The position numbers were made by a program, and so were the translations under genes. The notes below the pieces were generated by a model. It had not been told where the DNA came from. It was given only the letters and a program-made list of their open reading frames with translations, and searched no databases. Shown one piece after another: positions 13,597 through 27,678 of a DNA stretch of 64,000 nucleotides (its first letter is position 1; the number at the start of each line of letters is the position of its first letter). This stretch comes from a virus: IMG/VR virus record IMGVR_UViG_3300001567_000262, positions 1-64,000 of that record; one strand, 5' to 3'.

Positions 13597-13629
13597 CACA
13601 TCTTTGAGCCGGGGGCGGAATAAGCCAAG
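13597..13629 (-). promoter_or_regulatory. Conserved 33-bp promoter/operator upstream of the recombinase cassette
   Basis: CTTGGCTTATTCCGCCCCCGGCTCAAAGATGTG matches 61976-62008 at 27/33 positions. Confidence 0.6.
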
Positions 13630-13670
13630 CCGGTTGCAAAAAAAGATTTGGGGCAATCCGGACGCATGTT

Positions 13671-13731
13671 TTTCAAAGCTGAAAAGGACTTTCAAAAGTG
13701 ATTCACGCGGGGACTTTTTACCGCGGCGGGT
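13671..13731 (+). repeat. Right copy of the degenerate 61-bp direct repeat
   Basis: Same motif blocks and spacing as 11752-11812; ends 37 nt before the terL ATG. Confidence 0.7.
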
Positions 13732-13768
13732 ATGCCCGATTCCAGGAGACTGTTTGAACAACTTAGAA

Positions 13769-15289
13769 ATGTCAAAAGACCATCGCGCCATCGGGCGCAT
13801 TCTGCGCAACCCGCGGCTCTGGGGCGAGCAATACCTCAAGAACCGCGATGGAGCCGAGCGCCGCTATTGGGCGCATCAGAATGAAGACCTGGAATGCACG
13901 GCGACAAACATCATCCATCTCGACGGGCGCGATTCCGGCAAGACGGTCGATATCGCCACATTGGCGCTGCATCACGCTTTCGTGAAAATGGGCGGCTCCG
14001 TTCTGGTCGCCGCGCCGCATCAGGGCCCGGTGGACACAATCGTCGAGGAAATCGAGTTTCAGATCGAGAACAACCCCGACCTGCAGTCGAGCATCGCGGT
14101 CAACGCGCAGGGACGCCCGAAGATCACCCGGAAGCCCTATTTCAAAATCGAGTTCACGAATGGCTCCGTGATCTACTTCCGGCCAGCCGGAGCATACGGT
14201 GATCCGTTTCGATCTCTCCATGTGGAATTGATTCTCGTGGACGAGGGTGCGTGGCTTTCAGAAAAGGCGTGGAAAGCGCTGAGGCAATGCCTGAAGGCTG
14301 GCGGCAGGATGCGAATATACTCCACGCCGAATGGTCTGCGAGACACGACCTATTACCGGCTCACGCATTCTAAGAAGTGGAAAGTCTTCAGATGGCCGTC
14401 CTGGCTTCATCCGCTATGGACGGCGGAGCGCGAAGATGAACTCCTCGAGTTCTACGGCGGGCGGGACACCGCCGGATGGCAGCATGAGGTTGCGGGAGAA
14501 CATGGCCGACCGAGTTACGGCGCATTCAACCTTGAACATCTGACTGTCTGCCGACAGGACATTCCCGAATATGTGTGTGTCGATATAACCGGCGACGAGC
14601 TGAAAGATTGCGATAACGAGGAAGAACTCGCCGAACGGCTCGACATGCTGCTTGATCTCGTTCCGGCTGACGGACTGTTCTGGATCGGCGGCGACCTCGG
14701 TTACACCGCAGACCCGACGGAGATCGTGATATTCAGGGAGACATCGGAAAATGAAAAAGCTGTTCTGCGTCTTGTGCGCCGTATTCACATGGAGCGCGTG
14801 GCCTATCCTCATATTGCCCAGGCAATCGCTCTGCTGGACAGATATCTCAATCCCGCCGGCATCGGTGTTGACGCAGGCGGCAACGGACTGTCCGTGGTTC
14901 AGGAGCTGACTGCGCTCAATAAATACAAGGAACTGAATCTCGCGCCCCGGCTGCGCGGATACAACTTCGGAAGCGCTGTTGTCATCGGAGAGAACGACGG
15001 GCAGTCAATCAAAAAGAAATGCAAGGAATACATGACGAGCCTGATCAACAAGGGGCTGCAGGCGCGACAGATCATACTCCCGGCGTCGGATGTGGAAATA
15101 GAAAGTCAATTCACTACGCACACATACTCGATGAAGACCGGACAGGTCATTTATTCAAAGGGCAACGACCACATCGTGGATGCAGTCCGGTGCGCTGTGA
15201 TGATTCGGGATCAGGGACGTCTGGATGAACTTGGCGGCGGTGTTGGCGATCTTCCTCTACCCGTCATGACAAATGCGATCTTCTGTTGA
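13769..15289 (+). CDS. Terminase large subunit
   Basis: Walker A GRDSGKT, Walker B ILVDEG, YSTP motif, nuclease WIGGDLG and NDHIVDAVR. Start placed at ATG 13769. Confidence 0.9.
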   Translation: MSKDHRAIGRILRNPRLWGEQYLKNRDGAERRYWAHQNEDLECTATNIIHLDGRDSGKTVDIATLALHHAFVKMGGSVLVAAPHQGPVDTIVEEIEFQIENNPDLQSSIAVNAQGRPKITRKPYFKIEFTNGSVIYFRPAGAYGDPFRSLHVELILVDEGAWLSEKAWKALRQCLKAGGRMRIYSTPNGLRDTTYYRLTHSKKWKVFRWPSWLHPLWTAEREDELLEFYGGRDTAGWQHEVAGEHGRPSYGAFNLEHLTVCRQDIPEYVCVDITGDELKDCDNEEELAERLDMLLDLVPADGLFWIGGDLGYTADPTEIVIFRETSENEKAVLRLVRRIHMERVAYPHIAQAIALLDRYLNPAGIGVDAGGNGLSVVQELTALNKYKELNLAPRLRGYNFGSAVVIGENDGQSIKKKCKEYMTSLINKGLQARQIILPASDVEIESQFTTHTYSMKTGQVIYSKGNDHIVDAVRCAVMIRDQGRLDELGGGVGDLPLPVMTNAIFC

Positions 15290-15301
15290 AAGGCATATCG
15301 A

Positions 15302-15661
15302 ATGACCGATCAGGAACTGATAAAAGAAAAAATGGCGAGCGTCACGGATCTGCTTCTGCGAAAAAACCGCGACTACGGCAGCAGCTTCCGAAAGCCGGGC
15401 ATCCTGTCCGGCGCGCTCGATCCAAAATCGAAACTGCTTGTCCGCATCGATGACAAGCTCGAGCGCCTTGGCAATCTGCTCGATAAGGGAACGGACGGAG
15501 ATGTGCAGAACGAAAGCATGTCTGACACGGTGGACGATCTTGTCGGCTACTTCGTGCTTCTCGGCATTCTACTTGATGAACAAAAACAGGCTGGACGACC
15601 AATGAGTGTGATTGACGCTCACAACAGGCAGGACAACACACAAGGCGGAGCAACCGAGTGA
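15302..15661 (+). CDS. DUF1599 / nucleotide-modification-associated domain protein
   Basis: KNRDYGSSF, VRIDDKLERL and DTVDDLVGY motifs. Confidence 0.8.
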   Translation: MTDQELIKEKMASVTDLLLRKNRDYGSSFRKPGILSGALDPKSKLLVRIDDKLERLGNLLDKGTDGDVQNESMSDTVDDLVGYFVLLGILLDEQKQAGRPMSVIDAHNRQDNTQGGATE

Positions 15662-17190
15662 AAAAGAAGAACGGAAACAACAACCGTCATGGAACAGGCA
15701 ACCATGCCACGGGTCTGACTTTTATGAGCCCGAACATGGCGACCGCCGCCGAAATGAGCGCATCCACATTCAGTGCGCAGAACGTGAGTGACGCGATCCC
15801 GAAAACGTTTGAGGAACGCGCGACCAAGGCATGGCAGTTTTACGTCGAGGAGCCTATCGTCCAGAACGCGATCAACTCATGGCGCACGTTCGCCATCGGA
15901 GATGAAATCCAGTTCAACTGCGACGACGAGGATGTGAAATGGGAAGCCCGCGAATTCGCCGACCGTGTGCAGTTGAACAAACTCATAAAGGACAGCGTTC
16001 TTCAGTGCCTCGTGAAAGGCGAGACCGTCTGTTTCAAGCGACCCTCAAAGGATGGCAAGGACATTGAGGAAATCGTCTGTGTAAATCCGATCAGTGTGAA
16101 AGTGAAATATGAGAACGGCAAACTCATTGAAGCGAAGCAGACGCCTGAAACAGCCGGAAGCGGCGAGCCGATTGATTTGCCTCTCGAGCAGACGCTTCAC
16201 ATCAAATGGAACGCGCCGTCCTATTCCGCCCGTGGAAACTCGATGGTCGTTACGGCGTTTGAGTCCATCGAGCTGTTGCGGGACTACCGCAATGCGGAAC
16301 GCGCCGTCGCCAAGCGATGGACGACTCCGCTTCGGTTTATTCAGGTTGGCGGGCAATTCGGCCAGAAAACCATCGTGCCCGCCCAGAGAACGCTCAACAC
16401 CGTGCGCGACATGCTGAACCGCATGGATTTGAAAGCCGGTCTGGTCGTGCCGTTCTATGTTAAAGCCGAGACATACGGCACCGAGGGCCAGGTGCTGGAC
16501 ACGGAAAAGAAGATCAAGGAAATCAAAGAGGACATCATCATAGCGCTTGGGCTTGCGAAATCACTCATCACCGGCGACGGCCCGAACTTCGCAACCGCGT
16601 CCATCGGCATGCAGAAGATGGTCGTCATGCTCAAGGAAATCAAACAGGTCGCCCGCGACATTCTTAAATGGATTTTCACGGACTGGCAGAAGCTGCACGG
16701 GTACGAGGAAAAGAGCATCAACTACATCTTCAACGATCTCGATCTTACGAACGAGGTCGATCTCAAAAAACTGTATATCGAACTCTACGACCGCAAACTC
16801 ATCTCGAAGAACAGCCTACAGATTAAAATGGACCTCAATCCAGAAGTGGAAGCGTCACATACCGAAACAGAATCCAAGCAGGCTATCACGGTCACCGATC
16901 CGAAACTCATTATCGAAATGGTGAACGCCGGAATCATGTCCGTCGATTCCGCGCAGGAGAAGTTGGGACTGGATAAGGAAAAGAACAAACCCGCCACCGC
17001 CGACTGGAACTACAGGCCTCCCGCGGTAACCGGCGCGGTGGAGTTTGATACCATCTGCGACGAGTGTGAGTTTTTCGATGATGAAAACAACTGGTGCGAC
17101 GCGAACAACCGGGACACCCGGTTCGACTCACGCGCATGCACTTCGTTTGAAAGAAAACGCGCAAAGGCAGGATGCGGATGCAAGCAGTAG
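15658..17190 (+). CDS. Portal protein with a Cys-rich C-terminal tail
   Basis: Lies between terL and MuF; 510 aa; EEPIVQNAI and IIIALG..KSLI portal-like segments. Confidence 0.75.
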   Translation: MKKKNGNNNRHGTGNHATGLTFMSPNMATAAEMSASTFSAQNVSDAIPKTFEERATKAWQFYVEEPIVQNAINSWRTFAIGDEIQFNCDDEDVKWEAREFADRVQLNKLIKDSVLQCLVKGETVCFKRPSKDGKDIEEIVCVNPISVKVKYENGKLIEAKQTPETAGSGEPIDLPLEQTLHIKWNAPSYSARGNSMVVTAFESIELLRDYRNAERAVAKRWTTPLRFIQVGGQFGQKTIVPAQRTLNTVRDMLNRMDLKAGLVVPFYVKAETYGTEGQVLDTEKKIKEIKEDIIIALGLAKSLITGDGPNFATASIGMQKMVVMLKEIKQVARDILKWIFTDWQKLHGYEEKSINYIFNDLDLTNEVDLKKLYIELYDRKLISKNSLQIKMDLNPEVEASHTETESKQAITVTDPKLIIEMVNAGIMSVDSAQEKLGLDKEKNKPATADWNYRPPAVTGAVEFDTICDECEFFDDENNWCDANNRDTRFDSRACTSFERKRAKAGCGCKQ

Positions 17191-20100
17191 CTGTTGAAAA
17201 AACACTCCGCGACCGGATAGTCGAGGCGACGCTCGTGTCTTTGCACGAACGTGACCTTTATTCGGAGCAGACGGTGACCCGCGTCCTGGATTCGCTTCAG
17301 CGTTCCGAAAAGGACGTTAAAGCGAGCCTTCTTTATTACGCCAATCTCGGCTCTCTGCCCGAGGGCAAAGCAATCAATCAGGCATCCCTTAAAAAACTCC
17401 AGCAGCAAATCAGGGAACACATCCGCACCGTGCGCGACGAACATTCTCTCATCATGAAGACCGCCGTCAAAGAGAGTTACAGGTCGGGCATTCACAGCGG
17501 CATCAGCGATCTCGTCCGGGCACAGATGCCGTTTTACCGCGACCTCACGCCGGACGGCATCAAGCAATGCGGGAGCAACATCTTCACGCTCATCGATAAA
17601 GACGCGCTGGACTTCATGGCGAACTACAATGTGCAGCTCGCCGGGGATGTGTCCCGCGAATTGACTGACGGGATCAACCGCGCGATCCAGACCGGCATCG
17701 CCTCCGGCCGTAGTGTCCCGGAAATCGCAAAAGACATCGGGCGTGTGGTCAAAGACCCGGAGGAGTTCCGCAAGGCTGGGAAAACCGTTTTCAAAACGGC
17801 TCAATACCGTATGGAGATGATCGCCCGGACGGAAACGCTCCGCGCTCACAATCAGGGCCGCATGAAGTTCTACAACACGGTCGGCGTGACAAAAGTTGAA
17901 TGGATGGCCGTGGGCGACGAGCGCGAATGTCCCGTGTGCCGTGAGCTGGACGGAAAGATATTCCCGATAGACAAAGTGCCGAACATTCCCGCTCACCCGC
18001 ATTGCAGGTGCCAGATACTTAATGCCTATCCATCGGAGATATGCGGGGCGAAGAATCTCGGCGTTGTAGCCGCGCCGGCGGAAGCTGCCTGCATCCTGCC
18101 GCCGCAGACCATCGAGGACATGGCAAAGGAAAAACAGTCCGAAGCCATCAAGATCGGACAATTCATTTCAAAGGGCGAATGGGACAAACTCACAATCAAA
18201 CAGCTTCAGGATCAGGCCAAGTCAAACGGCATCTCAATCGCTCGCACCAAGGCTGATTTTCTCGATATCCTCAAACAGAAAACAGGAACTGATTTCTCGC
18301 ACCTGTCTGGTAAAGACCTGCAGGCGCTCATAAAAGAACACAAAATCGCCGCTCTGCGCAGCAAGGACGATCTGGTCGGTCTGTTGAAGGCAAAAGCAAA
18401 ACAGGAATCGGTGCCTGATTATTCCTCGATGCCCGTGTCGAAACTCAAAGAGCTGGCGCAGGAAAAAGGAATCTCTCTCAATCTTACGAAGCAGGAAGTG
18501 ATCGACATCCTCGACGTACTCGAACCCGGGGTGGACCACAGCGGGCTTTCCGGGCAGGCACTCATCGAGGCGAAAAAGAAATTCAATCTCCCGATTCTCA
18601 AAACAAAAGAACACCTCATAAAAGCTCTGGAGAAAAACTTCAAAGAGGAAATCGGAAAGAAAGTTACGAAGGAAGCCGTCGTTCAGGTCGCCGAGGAAAC
18701 AATCAAAAAGGAAAAAGACCAGATCGTTTCCCTGCTGGATGCGGTCAAAGTTTCCGCAGACCCGAAGGATTACCAGTCGGTTCTCTCCGCGATCAAGGAT
18801 GCCGAATCGTTCCTCGGCAAAGGCGGTTTCTCCGTTGACGATGCTTACCTGAAAGAGAAAGCGTCTGAAATCGTAAAGAAGAAAGACGAGTTCAAGGCAA
18901 AGATTCAGGCCATGAATTCAAAGGATTTGAAAGACCTCGCCAAGCAAAGCAAGGTCACGCACTGGCAGTGGGGTTCGAAAGACGATTTTATCGCGCTTTT
19001 CACCGAGACGGACGACGCGGTGATTCAGACCGCGAAGAACAGCATCGAAACCAAGTGGGCGAAGTGGGCGGAAAAATATGGAAAGAAGCCTGCCGCGGGA
19101 GTCCAGGCGCCGCCGCCGAAAGCGCCGCTGAAACACACGCCGCAGCCCGCTCCGGAACCGGTAGCGCCGCCATTCCTTCAAAAGCCGCACGCGGACCTGT
19201 CTTCCGGTTTCGCAAAAGTCGATTCCGACTGGGACGTGCTGGACAAGGGAAAGGCTTTCAAATACTCGAAGGACGCGAAATCACTCGGTGGCGCTCATGA
19301 AAAATACATATATATAGATGAACACGGTGACAAGTGGCTTTTCAAGCCGACGGATAAATTCATCGCGCACGGTGAAGAGATGGGCTACCGGATCGCGCGG
19401 CTCATCGATCCCGATGCCGTCGAGGTTCGATACGTCGAGCTGAACGGTCGCTCCGGCTCCATCCAGCGGCTGGTTAAGAACGTCAAATCAGAGGCGTCGT
19501 TCCGGGACATTCCCATCGGAAAGCTGTCTCCTTCCGAGATCGAGGCAATCCAGCGTGAACACATTCTCGACTGGCTTATTTCGAACCACGACGCACACGC
19601 CAAACAGTTTGTCCGCGCTGCGGACGACAAAGTCTTTGGGATCGACAAAGGACAGACGTTCAAGTTTCTCGGCAAGGATAAACTCGGCATTTCTTACCAT
19701 CCGAACTCAATGGAGGCCGAACCGATCTACAACACGCTGTTTCGGGCATACCAGAACGGCGAAATCGACATCGACCTGCAGGCGGCGCTCAAAACCATCC
19801 AGCGCATCGAGAAAATACCGGACTCGGAATATCTTGAAATCATCCGGCCTTATGTCGAGGGGCGTTTCGGCGCGAAAGCGAGCGCGGCTAAAGATGAGTT
19901 CTACCGGCTCGTGCTGGAGCGTAAAAACAACATTCGCCGGGACTTCGAGAAATTTTACAACGACCTTTATAAAGCGCGGTTCAAAGCCGAGTTCCGGTTC
20001 CAGGATGATGTCAAAACGATAAAGAAGCTGTCCGGCGAAGACGAAGCCATTCTGCGTGATGCACAGATAATGAAGGGTCAGGGAAAAGCCATGCGTCTCG

Positions 20101-21731
20101 ACGTGGACGACATCGAGGATCAGAACGCCCTCGTTTTCACACAAAAGAACATGCAGGGCAAAGAGGAAACGGTCGTTCAATTCAAATTGCGCCCGGACTC
20201 TGAGCGGAAACTCCTCGATGCACTCGGCGAAAAAGGCACCGCCTTAAAGGGCCTCGCCACCGGAGACACGCTGCCCGAGGACACCTTCTACGAAAAAATC
20301 CTGTCCGGCGTTAAGACGGTCAACCACCATGTCGACAGCGGCGATTTTAAATATAACGCGGACACGCTGGATGAGATCAGGAAGATGCTCCCCGACATTG
20401 AACAGCTTGCGAAGTCCGGCAAGACGACATCCATCCGGGACATGGCCGAGGAATACAGAAAAACATGCGAGGCTGTTCTGGATGCCGCGAAAAACAATAC
20501 AAAGATTGGTGGTAAGTTCGAGCAGTACACCGCGAAAAAGAATCTCATTGCACAAGAGGCGAAGCCGGAACCTAAAAAAGCTGGTTTCCGCTTTCAGAGA
20601 ACAAATATCAAAATGGATCAAAGGCAATGCCGCGACGGTGAAATCCACGTCGTAAAATCCGATACGGACCTGAATAACATCTTCGGACGGAGTTCTGGTT
20701 TCAGCCGTGGTGTGCAGTACCGGATCGAACTCGACGACGGCGTGGTCATGGACTACCGTCCTTGGGATTCCGCGAATCCTTACGCCGTTCAGGGACAAGT
20801 GGAAATCCGCGTCACTGGCAAGATTGCGGACCCGGAGCGGTTCGAGGCCATTCTTGACCGGCTCGACCAACTTGGAATCAACTCGGTTCCCGCAAGCGTC
20901 GAGGATGCCGAGATTATGTATTTGCAGAAACAGGCGTATCTTCTGAAAAAAGACACGTCAGCCGCGTGGAAAAAGATGTCGCAGAAGTTGGACTCTTCGA
21001 ACGCTACCAAGGCCGAGCGCATTCAGGCCATGCGAAAGTTCTGGGCGGATGAACTCGGCGTTGACGATGTGACTAAAATACCGGGATACAATCCCAACGG
21101 AAACTATGAACTCGGATTCAAGGACCCGACTCGACGCGCCGGATACAGGCACCAGATGCGGTTTGATTTGACGGAAGAGACGCTGGATCGGGAATTGAAG
21201 GGATACGGTCTGTATCACAATGTCACAGATAACGGAGACGTTGAAGACCTTGTAAAGACCGTCCTTGAGAACAACGGCAACATGGTGTCCACCGTCGAGA
21301 AAATCCGCATCGGCGTGAAGCCTGGCGGCATGTCGCCGACAAGTGATATGGGAACCGGCGGCGCGTCTTATTTCTTCACCCGAGTTCGCAAGCTGCCGAC
21401 CGCCGGCGGCCGGGGAAGCGCAGGCCTCTTCTTCAAAAAGCGGCTTCTGCGCCGGATGGATGCTATCACTTACGACCACGACGCGTTCGGGAAAGTGATA
21501 GACGATTACGTCCGCCGCAAACGTCTGACAAGTATCCAGGACTACAAAAAGTTGGCTTTGGGCGGTCGAAGTGACGAGACTATTTTCAAATATACGGTGT
21601 CGCTTGTGGATGAAATCGACGTCATCAAAACGAGCAGCGCGGCGCAGCGTGCAAAGGTCATCGAACTGTTCAAGAAGAAAGGCTTCTCAAAACTGCCGGA
21701 TGGCCGGAAGATAGAGGAAGTGGTGCTCTGA
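17172..21731 (+). CDS. MuF (SPP1 gp7-like) minor head protein with HeH-like repeats, a PI3/4K/HipA-like kinase domain and an ART-like C-terminal domain
   Basis: MuF: IARTE, W.AVGDERECPVC..LDG, PAHPHCRC. Kinase-like: GGAHEKY, WLFKP, DWLISNHDAH, GIDKG. ART-like: LYH, VST, SYFF, DETIF. Confidence 0.8.
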   Translation: MRMQAVAVEKTLRDRIVEATLVSLHERDLYSEQTVTRVLDSLQRSEKDVKASLLYYANLGSLPEGKAINQASLKKLQQQIREHIRTVRDEHSLIMKTAVKESYRSGIHSGISDLVRAQMPFYRDLTPDGIKQCGSNIFTLIDKDALDFMANYNVQLAGDVSRELTDGINRAIQTGIASGRSVPEIAKDIGRVVKDPEEFRKAGKTVFKTAQYRMEMIARTETLRAHNQGRMKFYNTVGVTKVEWMAVGDERECPVCRELDGKIFPIDKVPNIPAHPHCRCQILNAYPSEICGAKNLGVVAAPAEAACILPPQTIEDMAKEKQSEAIKIGQFISKGEWDKLTIKQLQDQAKSNGISIARTKADFLDILKQKTGTDFSHLSGKDLQALIKEHKIAALRSKDDLVGLLKAKAKQESVPDYSSMPVSKLKELAQEKGISLNLTKQEVIDILDVLEPGVDHSGLSGQALIEAKKKFNLPILKTKEHLIKALEKNFKEEIGKKVTKEAVVQVAEETIKKEKDQIVSLLDAVKVSADPKDYQSVLSAIKDAESFLGKGGFSVDDAYLKEKASEIVKKKDEFKAKIQAMNSKDLKDLAKQSKVTHWQWGSKDDFIALFTETDDAVIQTAKNSIETKWAKWAEKYGKKPAAGVQAPPPKAPLKHTPQPAPEPVAPPFLQKPHADLSSGFAKVDSDWDVLDKGKAFKYSKDAKSLGGAHEKYIYIDEHGDKWLFKPTDKFIAHGEEMGYRIARLIDPDAVEVRYVELNGRSGSIQRLVKNVKSEASFRDIPIGKLSPSEIEAIQREHILDWLISNHDAHAKQFVRAADDKVFGIDKGQTFKFLGKDKLGISYHPNSMEAEPIYNTLFRAYQNGEIDIDLQAALKTIQRIEKIPDSEYLEIIRPYVEGRFGAKASAAKDEFYRLVLERKNNIRRDFEKFYNDLYKARFKAEFRFQDDVKTIKKLSGEDEAILRDAQIMKGQGKAMRLDVDDIEDQNALVFTQKNMQGKEETVVQFKLRPDSERKLLDALGEKGTALKGLATGDTLPEDTFYEKILSGVKTVNHHVDSGDFKYNADTLDEIRKMLPDIEQLAKSGKTTSIRDMAEEYRKTCEAVLDAAKNNTKIGGKFEQYTAKKNLIAQEAKPEPKKAGFRFQRTNIKMDQRQCRDGEIHVVKSDTDLNNIFGRSSGFSRGVQYRIELDDGVVMDYRPWDSANPYAVQGQVEIRVTGKIADPERFEAILDRLDQLGINSVPASVEDAEIMYLQKQAYLLKKDTSAAWKKMSQKLDSSNATKAERIQAMRKFWADELGVDDVTKIPGYNPNGNYELGFKDPTRRAGYRHQMRFDLTEETLDRELKGYGLYHNVTDNGDVEDLVKTVLENNGNMVSTVEKIRIGVKPGGMSPTSDMGTGGASYFFTRVRKLPTAGGRGSAGLFFKKRLLRRMDAITYDHDAFGKVIDDYVRRKRLTSIQDYKKLALGGRSDETIFKYTVSLVDEIDVIKTSSAAQRAKVIELFKKKGFSKLPDGRKIEEVVL

Positions 21732-22207
21732 TGCAGCAGGAACTCGATGCCGTGAAACAACAGATGCAGGAGAAGATAGACCGGATCAACGTGCCCGGGT
21801 CCGTGGTCGTTGTGGATGTCGGCCTTTCAGATTCCATCCGCATCCTTGTGGACAGGTTCGACATCCTGTTTGCCCGCCCCGTCATCGGCGCGGACGGCTC
21901 CGTGTCCGGCCATTACTACTGGGCCGTGTGTTTTGAAGTTGGTTTCGATCAGGGCGGGCCGCAGAATGTCCGGCTGTTCAAGATGGAGAATGTCCGGGAG
22001 GAACGACCCGATCTGTTTCGTTTTCGGGACCACCGTGGGTATTCATGCTTCATCGAAACCATCGACGAGATCGACGACGCCAAGAAAGCCGATTTCAAAA
22101 AGTGGCGGGAATACCGGAAACAGAATCAGAAGGCGTTCGACCGTCTGTACCTGAACTTCACCGCAGAGGCGATGGAAATGGCGCTGAATTGGGAGAAACC
22201 GATTTGA
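21731..22207 (+). CDS. Hypothetical protein (candidate immunity protein)
   Basis: Translationally coupled (TGATG) to the MuF gene. Confidence 0.65.
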   Translation: MQQELDAVKQQMQEKIDRINVPGSVVVVDVGLSDSIRILVDRFDILFARPVIGADGSVSGHYYWAVCFEVGFDQGGPQNVRLFKMENVREERPDLFRFRDHRGYSCFIETIDEIDDAKKADFKKWREYRKQNQKAFDRLYLNFTAEAMEMALNWEKPI

Positions 22208-22554
22208 TGAAAATACGCTATTTCATCGAATATAAACGTCCCGACCCGAACAAATGGGAGTTCATCCCCATCGGTGTCTGGGCGCACGGCGTGGACGACC
22301 GGTCGGCGTTCGAGGTCGGGTATGTGTCGGGTTTCGACGCCGAGGAATGGGACGCCCAGTGTGTGGTGAACCGGATTGTGGAGCTCGGAATAAAGGAACT
22401 ACCAGAGGATTTCCTCGAACGGCATCGTGAGGCCATATCCGTTTATCTCGGCTCGCGCACAAAGGTGTTCGAGACGGACAAGTACGGAAGCGTGACGGAA
22501 CTGGTGGATGACGTGCTGGAGCAGATAAGGAAAGGAATAATCAAAAATGCATAA
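22207..22554 (+). CDS. Hypothetical protein (candidate second immunity protein)
   Basis: TGATG coupling at 22205-22209; MKIRYFIEY start. Confidence 0.65.
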   Translation: MKIRYFIEYKRPDPNKWEFIPIGVWAHGVDDRSAFEVGYVSGFDAEEWDAQCVVNRIVELGIKELPEDFLERHREAISVYLGSRTKVFETDKYGSVTELVDDVLEQIRKGIIKNA

Positions 22555-26814: not shown

Positions 26815-27678
26815 ATGGAAACGAAAAAGGTCAACACGAACTCGCAGGAGTTCATGGAATCGATGGCAAAGCTGATGCGCGAGGCGCTGGAATCGCCCGA
26901 TGGCATGAGGGCGCTCGCCGCCGCAATCGCCGCACCCATCGAGCAGGACATCAAGCGCAAGGAAATCACCTCGCTTCTCCTGACGAAGCACAATCTGCCC
27001 AAGGGTGAACGCGCCCTTTACCAGAAGAAACCGCTTCTGAAGGCGTACTGGATTTCAAAGGACGGTGAAGCGCGGGAGCAGGAAATCGGCAAGGACGAGA
27101 TCGAAATCCCGACGCATCGCGTCCACAGCACGCCGATGGTCGACATCAGCGTGCTCAAGAATGGCAACATCGGCACGCTCACGGACATCCAGACGGCGTC
27201 CTCGGATGAAATCCGCAAGGAGATCGACAAACGCACGATCACCGTCATCTCCAGTGCCGTACCCGCCGAGAACGTTGTCACTATCTCCGGCGGTGTTCTG
27301 ACCGAGGACAGCCTCAACGACGCCATCAGCATTCTCGAAGACAAGGAACTGACCGTGAAGTACATCGTGCTTCGCGGAAAACGCTTCAACGAGATGCGGG
27401 CATGGGACCTCGACCCGGTCACCCAGCTCGAACTTCGCCAGAAAGGCATCATCAAAGTGTACGGCGGCGCGAACGTGCTGCTTACCTCCGCGGCTGATGT
27501 GAACGAAATTCTTCTCATCCCCGACGAGGAAATCGGCAAGATGCCCGTCCGCGAGCCTCTCACGGCGGAAGCAATCGACAAGAAACTGAAATTCAAAACC
27601 GGCTGGCTCATCTGGAGCGAACTCGGCATGGGCGTCACGCGCCCGGACATCGTCTCCAAGGTCGTCATTCAGCCGTAA
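26815..27678 (+). CDS. Major capsid protein (HK97-fold)
   Basis: Position, size, strong RBS and strongly biased codon usage. Confidence 0.75.
   Translation: METKKVNTNSQEFMESMAKLMREALESPDGMRALAAAIAAPIEQDIKRKEITSLLLTKHNLPKGERALYQKKPLLKAYWISKDGEAREQEIGKDEIEIPTHRVHSTPMVDISVLKNGNIGTLTDIQTASSDEIRKEIDKRTITVISSAVPAENVVTISGGVLTEDSLNDAISILEDKELTVKYIVLRGKRFNEMRAWDLDPVTQLELRQKGIIKVYGGANVLLTSAADVNEILLIPDEEIGKMPVREPLTAEAIDKKLKFKTGWLIWSELGMGVTRPDIVSKVVIQP

Follow-up and report, generated by a model that had tools for sequence, protein, structure and literature searches.

A MuF head protein of a provirus carries an atypical kinase-like domain and a probable DarT-like ADP-ribosyltransferase domain

Introduction

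Why would a phage minor head protein carry what look like two enzymes, and where would they act? The question is raised by a gene in IMG/VR virus record IMGVR_UViG_3300001567_000262, of which we analysed positions 1 to 64,000 (hereafter the window), part of a 133-kb record classed as a provirus. The gene (P0001; 17172..21731, + strand) is an uninterrupted frame for a MuF polyvalent minor head protein of 1519 amino acids. Proteins that phages inject act ahead of any phage gene expression and therefore shape host takeover and defence escape. Few of them have been studied, examples being T4 Alt, P1 Dar and N4 vRNAP.

A first-pass annotation had read the frame as a MuF protein ending in a kinase-like core and an ADP-ribosyltransferase (ART)-like pattern. 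The frame and all of its quoted motifs are present: GGAHEKY (residues 706-712), FKP (724-726), NHDAHAKQ (805-812) and IDKG (824-827) in the first, and LYH (1347-1349), ST (1373-1374), YF (1400-1401) and E1469 in the second. These are not chance resemblances, because more than 120 full-length relatives align at 45-50% identity over residues 690-1519 with 100% coverage, the profile of the C-terminal domain matches 1320 clusters (50% identity) at E<=1e-3, and the motif residues vary little or not at all.

Results

A MuF domain and DNA-binding-like repeats precede the enzyme-like domains

The N-terminal part holds a MuF (SPP1 gp7-like) head-incorporation domain at residues 167-282 (17670..18017, +; PF04233, E 5e-17). 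Its Phage_Mu_F match of 63 bits, against a curated cut-off of 29.6, bears out the earlier assignment, and many PHROG 'minor head / head morphogenesis' families also match the protein. One further family, phrog_6577, annotated as of unknown function, matches residues 51-1355 of the 1519 (E 2e-134). The gene adjoins that of the portal within a head and packaging module that runs TerL (13604-15289), portal (15658-17190), MuF gene, orfA, orfB, a methyltransferase/scaffold-like gene and the major head protein (26815-27678), an order kept in about 100 related loci.

Following the MuF domain are about five SAP/HeH (Rho_N-like) helix-extension-helix repeats, counted by eye, at residues ~335-615 (18174..19016, +), which are putatively DNA binding. 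Pfam matches are weak and confined to residues 416-447 (SAP, E 1.3e-3; Rho_N, E 6e-3), several relatives bear precomputed SAP/Rho_N annotations, and the family profile matched only the SAP-like stretch of Ku70 in the PDB (E 0.14). A Pro-rich linker covers residues 640-680. One relative of 2685 amino acids (P0226) has an intein (PT-HINT / Intein_splicing) with a DUF559/MTES_1575 endonuclease at residues ~281-681, directly after its Phage_Mu_F match (162-273), and a NUDIX domain in the same protein.

The kinase-like domain keeps its catalytic residues

An atypical protein-kinase-like domain spans residues 681-935 (19212..19976, +), with key residues K725 (19344-19346), D807 (19590-19592), Q812 (19605-19607) and D825 (19644-19646), all on the + strand. 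It has a bilobal protein-kinase-like fold of the PI3/4K-HipA-CtkA type, as the first-pass annotation had expected. We compared its structure with known ones by Foldseek re-alignment and by a Foldseek-independent search of 48,161 chains. CtkA was the best match, scoring 14.0 and 13.2, respectively, followed by Fam20C (12.6 and 12.5, with other Fam20 entries up to 12.8 in the chain search), MavQ (11.7 in both), HipT (11.2 in both), actin-fragmin kinase (11.1 in both), PI3K and PIKK members (<=10.7 in both) and HipA (10.0 and 9.9). Classical protein kinases had no separate rank in the re-alignment and reached <=8 in the chain search.

The ATP lysine K725, N805, the catalytic-loop aspartate D807 and the metal-binding D825 are invariant in 159 of 159 relatives. 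A Gln had been noted in place of the catalytic-loop Asn. This substitution is real: of the 159, 136 have Q at position 812 and 21 have N. The alternation indicates that Gln is a family-typical substitute for the metal-binding Asn rather than the mark of a dead enzyme. A helical C-lobe is retained in the predicted model, with its helices at model residues 182-267, and H806 and D807 are adjacent. On the isolated domain HipA_C (PF07804) fell below its cut-off (24.7 vs 30.5 bits), and PI3_PI4_kinase was absent among the Pfam matches. Judged from its sequence, the domain appears intact; it is predicted to work as these kinases do but falls into no named family.

The C-terminal domain is probably a DarT-like ADP-ribosyltransferase

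A conserved middle domain of unmatched fold, with a three-helix bundle between two beta-rich halves, occupies residues 954-1299 (20031..21068, +); an ESM Atlas search with it returned nothing usable. The ART-like domain closes the protein (residues 1331-1519; 21162..21728, +). Its candidate catalytic residues, H1349 (21216-21218), Y1400 (21369-21371) and E1469 (21576-21578), again on the + strand, occur in that order with 98%, 99% and 100% conservation among 263 diverse sequences, and each sits at the start or end of a strand in the predicted model. R1379, S1388, D1392, R1404, R1428, D1430, D1437 and K1473 are further invariant residues.

In a Foldseek-independent structure search, four DarT entries were the only matches near the top that were not helical bundles, and each spanned the whole C-terminal domain. 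The DarT link surfaced with this aligner only; Foldseek of the 935-1519 model against the PDB gave nothing at E<=0.001. The domain has no Pfam match at E<1, and phmmer of the protein against the PDB found none. Comparing the 263-sequence alignment with 23 DarT sequences, hhalign returned a probability of 1.5% with just 27 C-terminal columns in register, and the DarT hidden Markov model (PF14487) had no match at E<=10 in a six-frame search of the provirus. The interpretation offered at first pass is partly borne out. Taken together, the model and the conservation indicate that the C-terminal domain is probably a DarT-like ADP-ribosyltransferase with a candidate H-Y-E set. ESM Atlas searches with the C-terminal part gave weak leads only (0.90-0.92), to giant-virus DUF5846/DUF5863 and OspC; the family may be structurally linked to giant-virus, iridovirus and baculovirus proteins.

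Both activities are predictions, which leaves room for a mainly structural extension, that is, an internal head, DNA-spooling or ejection protein in which the kinase-like and ART-like folds are non-catalytic scaffolds. The middle and C-terminal domains are indeed conserved like core virion proteins and hold a fixed position. However, conservation falls exactly on the canonical catalytic positions, complete at K725, D807 and D825 and 98-100% at H1349, Y1400 and E1469, and position 812 alternates between Q and N only. Pseudoenzymes usually lose their catalytic residues. We therefore consider a purely structural role improbable.

The cassette is a core gene of its phage lineage

Genome matches come from Desulfobacterota, Nitrospirota (Nitrospiraceae), Hydrogenedentota, Planctomycetota (Phycisphaerae), Verrucomicrobiota, Gammaproteobacteria, Acidobacteriota, Zixibacteria and others, the nearest (~91% identity) being in the digester metagenome-assembled genome (MAG) ADurb.Bin236. 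Cultured carriers include Desulfosarcina, Syntrophus buswellii and Ectothiorhodospira shaposhnikovii. In about 100 prophages from many phyla the cassette sits in fixed synteny, portal / MuF protein / orfA / orfB / methyltransferase-scaffold / capsid. Typical identities between loci are 56% for the portal, 48-53% for MuF, 53% for the kinase, 38% for the middle domain, 53-55% for the C-terminal domain and 67-70% for the capsid. In 259 of 262 proteins the C-terminal domain is the very last part of the chain. Because cassette identities track those of the portal and synteny is fixed, we read the gene as a core gene of its lineage and not as a swapped toxin tip. The polymorphic tip suggested earlier is accordingly not supported: the C-terminus is conserved across the full-length relatives and diverges as the portal does.

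Not all of the protein is equally constant. Among 106 diverse relatives of at least 900 amino acids each, 99 keep the middle domain and 38 the kinase, suggesting that the constant unit is the middle plus C-terminal domains and that the kinase is an accessory module. A NUDIX domain was seen in scanned relatives that have no kinase. A cultured cyanophage, Pseudanabaena phage Pan1, encodes a 927-amino-acid 'head morphogenesis protein', gp15 (ON968452.1; L133:2435-5218), in which MuF is joined to a portion of the middle domain and to the C-terminal ART-like domain (E 1e-39) and the kinase is missing.

The C-terminal domain was also found in less typical settings. It occurs (54% identity) on a 1339-bp contig (L052) binned as a Methanomicrobiaceae archaeon MAG, an assignment that is more likely a binning artefact than a sign of an archaeal virus. 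Four 'stand-alone' versions belong to a set of proteins of 212-242 amino acids. Two of them, P0159 and P0248, lie against the ends of short contigs, and a third, P0242, is on a contig of 1.8 kb; these three may therefore be fragments. P0176 overlaps a preceding gene for 1167 amino acids, as a split gene would. No usable toxin-antitoxin context was seen at the stand-alone loci examined, and the small genes downstream of them had no detectable homology to orfA or orfB.

Two small coupled genes follow the MuF gene

The start of orfA (158 amino acids; 21731..22207, +) overlaps the MuF stop, and the start of orfB (115 amino acids; 22207..22554, +) overlaps the stop of orfA. A coupled open reading frame of at least 90 amino acids directly follows the gene in 92/92 related loci with enough sequence. 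Besides close relatives, 33 loci have a detectable homologue of orfA, with identities of 23-29%; for orfB, 85 of the 101 related loci searched by tblastn have a match, with identities of 30-40% and always just downstream. Neither has a Pfam or PHROG match, and neither matches an immunity, macro, NADAR or ARH family. Searches of the 133-kb record for Macro, NADAR and ADP_ribosyl_GH gave no match although the controls matched, so the provirus has no ADP-ribose 'eraser' gene. From sequence and position, orfA is a candidate partner that could be an immunity protein, an inhibitor or an assembly factor, and orfB is a small conserved candidate partner with a possible immunity or inhibitor role. In four divergent members (L129-L132) the next gene encodes a protein of 112-124 amino acids with the motif GHP-x-H-[LV]-[IV]-EG ... 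GPW-x-VG-[KR]-A; profile comparison did not show it to be related to the orfA of the window.

These genes bear on whether the protein serves bacterial competition as a MuF polymorphic toxin. In that case non-lysogens reached by the particle or by the released protein would be killed or arrested by the C-terminal enzymes, and orfA and orfB would be the two cognate immunity proteins that protect the lysogen. In favour are the provirus nature of the element, the two small translationally coupled genes behind the toxin-like domains, and the two immunity proteins known for Bxa, a MuF-family prophage ART (PMC11699363). On the other hand, the polymorphism that such toxins display is missing, the cassette being 50-55% identical between phyla, close to the 56% of the portal; the small genes vary together with the cassette in fixed synteny and fall outside the immunity and eraser families named above; and coupled frames are to be expected anyway in tightly packed phage late operons. 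We find this explanation unlikely.

Other features of the provirus

A second full-length MuF-kinase-ART gene, 93% identical to the first, lies outside the window in the same record (G000:C1:105336-109889). Two such copies on one contig point to two related prophages or a duplicated module. Across window:52000-60000 the G+C content drops from 0.53-0.58 to 0.37-0.40, which probably marks the edge of the prophage or a foreign island.

The gene immediately before that of the major head protein (window:22827-26396, +) encodes a protein of 1189 amino acids. In it, a pair of D12-class N6-adenine DNA methyltransferase domains (Pfam E 6e-45; phrog_27806) is followed by a C-terminus that is protease/scaffold-like and coiled-coil. 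Its synteny is kept in 72 related loci, and its domains and position suggest a DNA methyltransferase that is loaded into proheads.

Discussion

The reading we favour, with moderate confidence and by analogy with described systems, is that the MuF head protein is virion cargo that is ejected with the DNA, and that its kinase and ART would modify targets early in infection. In this view a temperate tailed phage has a MuF-type minor head protein that was extended into a 'polyvalent' cargo protein. The MuF domain would bring a few copies to the portal inside the capsid, the SAP/HeH repeats would hold the protein on the packaged DNA, and upon infection it would leave the capsid together with that DNA. 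Two enzymes would then act in the new host. One would be an atypical, ATP-dependent kinase of the PI3/4K-HipA-CtkA type, and the other an NAD+-dependent ADP-ribosyltransferase of the H-Y-E kind, for which the DNA-modifying DarT enzymes are the nearest solved folds. The latter would work together with the constant middle domain, possibly a substrate-binding module. Targets could be host proteins or nucleic acid. Published models of MuF fusions and polyvalent proteins speak for the delivery step by analogy (PMC5512222, PMC5576092).

In a narrower version of this model, the constant middle plus C-terminal unit is a virion-delivered ADP-ribosyltransferase on nucleic acid that marks host or phage DNA or RNA as the genome enters. 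It might ADP-ribosylate host DNA to stall replication, or the ends of the phage genome as protection, with the SAP repeats and middle domain as a DNA clamp and with kinase and NUDIX as separable, interchangeable accessories. We hold this refinement to be tentative, with rather low odds. If it is true, a DarT-like enzyme is used by phage rather than against phage, in a widespread and unstudied form of host takeover or genome protection.

On the cargo reading, the significance lies in a very large family that pairs two predicted post-translational or nucleic-acid 'writer' enzymes outside Pfam models. Should the DarT-like domain be active, phages too would be armed with a fold that is chiefly known from anti-phage toxins. 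The cultured relative Pan1 gp15 makes the reading testable and is a possible experimental model.

The protein is a variant of the known MuF polyvalent effector proteins. The concept of delivery is thus already known, while the kinase family, the middle domain and the DarT-like domain lie outside all Pfam models, and our literature search found no study of any of these three or of the cassette. New here are the constant middle plus C-terminal unit with its optional kinase, the Q/N alternation at position 812, the comparison of rates with the portal, the tentative link to giant-virus, iridovirus and baculovirus proteins, and the absence of an ADP-ribose 'eraser' gene from the provirus.

Polyvalent proteins are encoded by phages and conjugative elements; ARTs and kinases are named among their typical cargo, and they are proposed to be injected along with the DNA (Iyer, Burroughs, Anand, de Souza and Aravind 2017, PMC5512222; NAD/ADPr survey, PMC9503650). 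Like them, the window protein has several unrelated enzyme domains attached to a MuF head anchor in one chain and is encoded among packaging and head genes; polyvalent proteins are defined by at least two unrelated effector-type domains in one polypeptide, and here MuF, SAP repeats, a kinase fold and an ART-like fold are combined. Their ARTs, however, are H-Y-D (Tox-ART-HYD2/N4-like) or Alt/VIP2, whereas ours has candidate H-Y-E residues and is nearest to DarT. In the kinase clade of PMC5512222 the C-terminal subdomain is missing and an insert separates the catalytic H from the D. By that paper's wording the window kinase falls outside the clade, with H806 next to D807 and the helical C-lobe kept. 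Compared with PI4KII-alpha, CtkA, HipA/HipT and Fam20C, most kinases of the window family have Gln for the loop Asn and sit inside a phage head protein.

The MuF polymorphic toxins (Jamet et al. 2017, PMC5576092) and the Bxa/Bsi/BAH system of a Bacteroides stercoris prophage (PMC11699363) likewise combine a MuF N-terminus with an enzymatic C-terminus in a temperate phage. They resemble the window gene further in that small genes lie directly downstream and ARTs are among the known tips. Their tips vary between related phages, whereas the window cassette is fixed across phyla, and PMC5576092 does not mention a kinase. Ct_MAD of the same paper was set aside as a match because it derives from the C-terminus of COG2369. 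The window provirus has no ADP-ribosylhydrolase partner. Relative to DarT1 and DarT2 of DarTG (PMC11543638), the window domain has no sequence or profile similarity and no DarG or NADAR antitoxin, and it is not free-standing but fused to a virion protein.

A close parallel in architecture is mycobacteriophage McProf gp54 with its relatives, annotated as 'minor capsid and ADP-ribosyltransferase domain fusion protein', which has the same order of MuF-type domain, kinase and ART. Its kinase is of the same family (33% identity) and keeps NHDxHxxQF and GIDKGQ. Its ART, by contrast, is of the C3/exoenzyme type with R-S-E (PF03496), and the middle and DarT-like domains are absent there. McProf gp54 is thus an independent pairing of a kinase followed by an ART, which supports an enzymatic role for both domains of the window protein.

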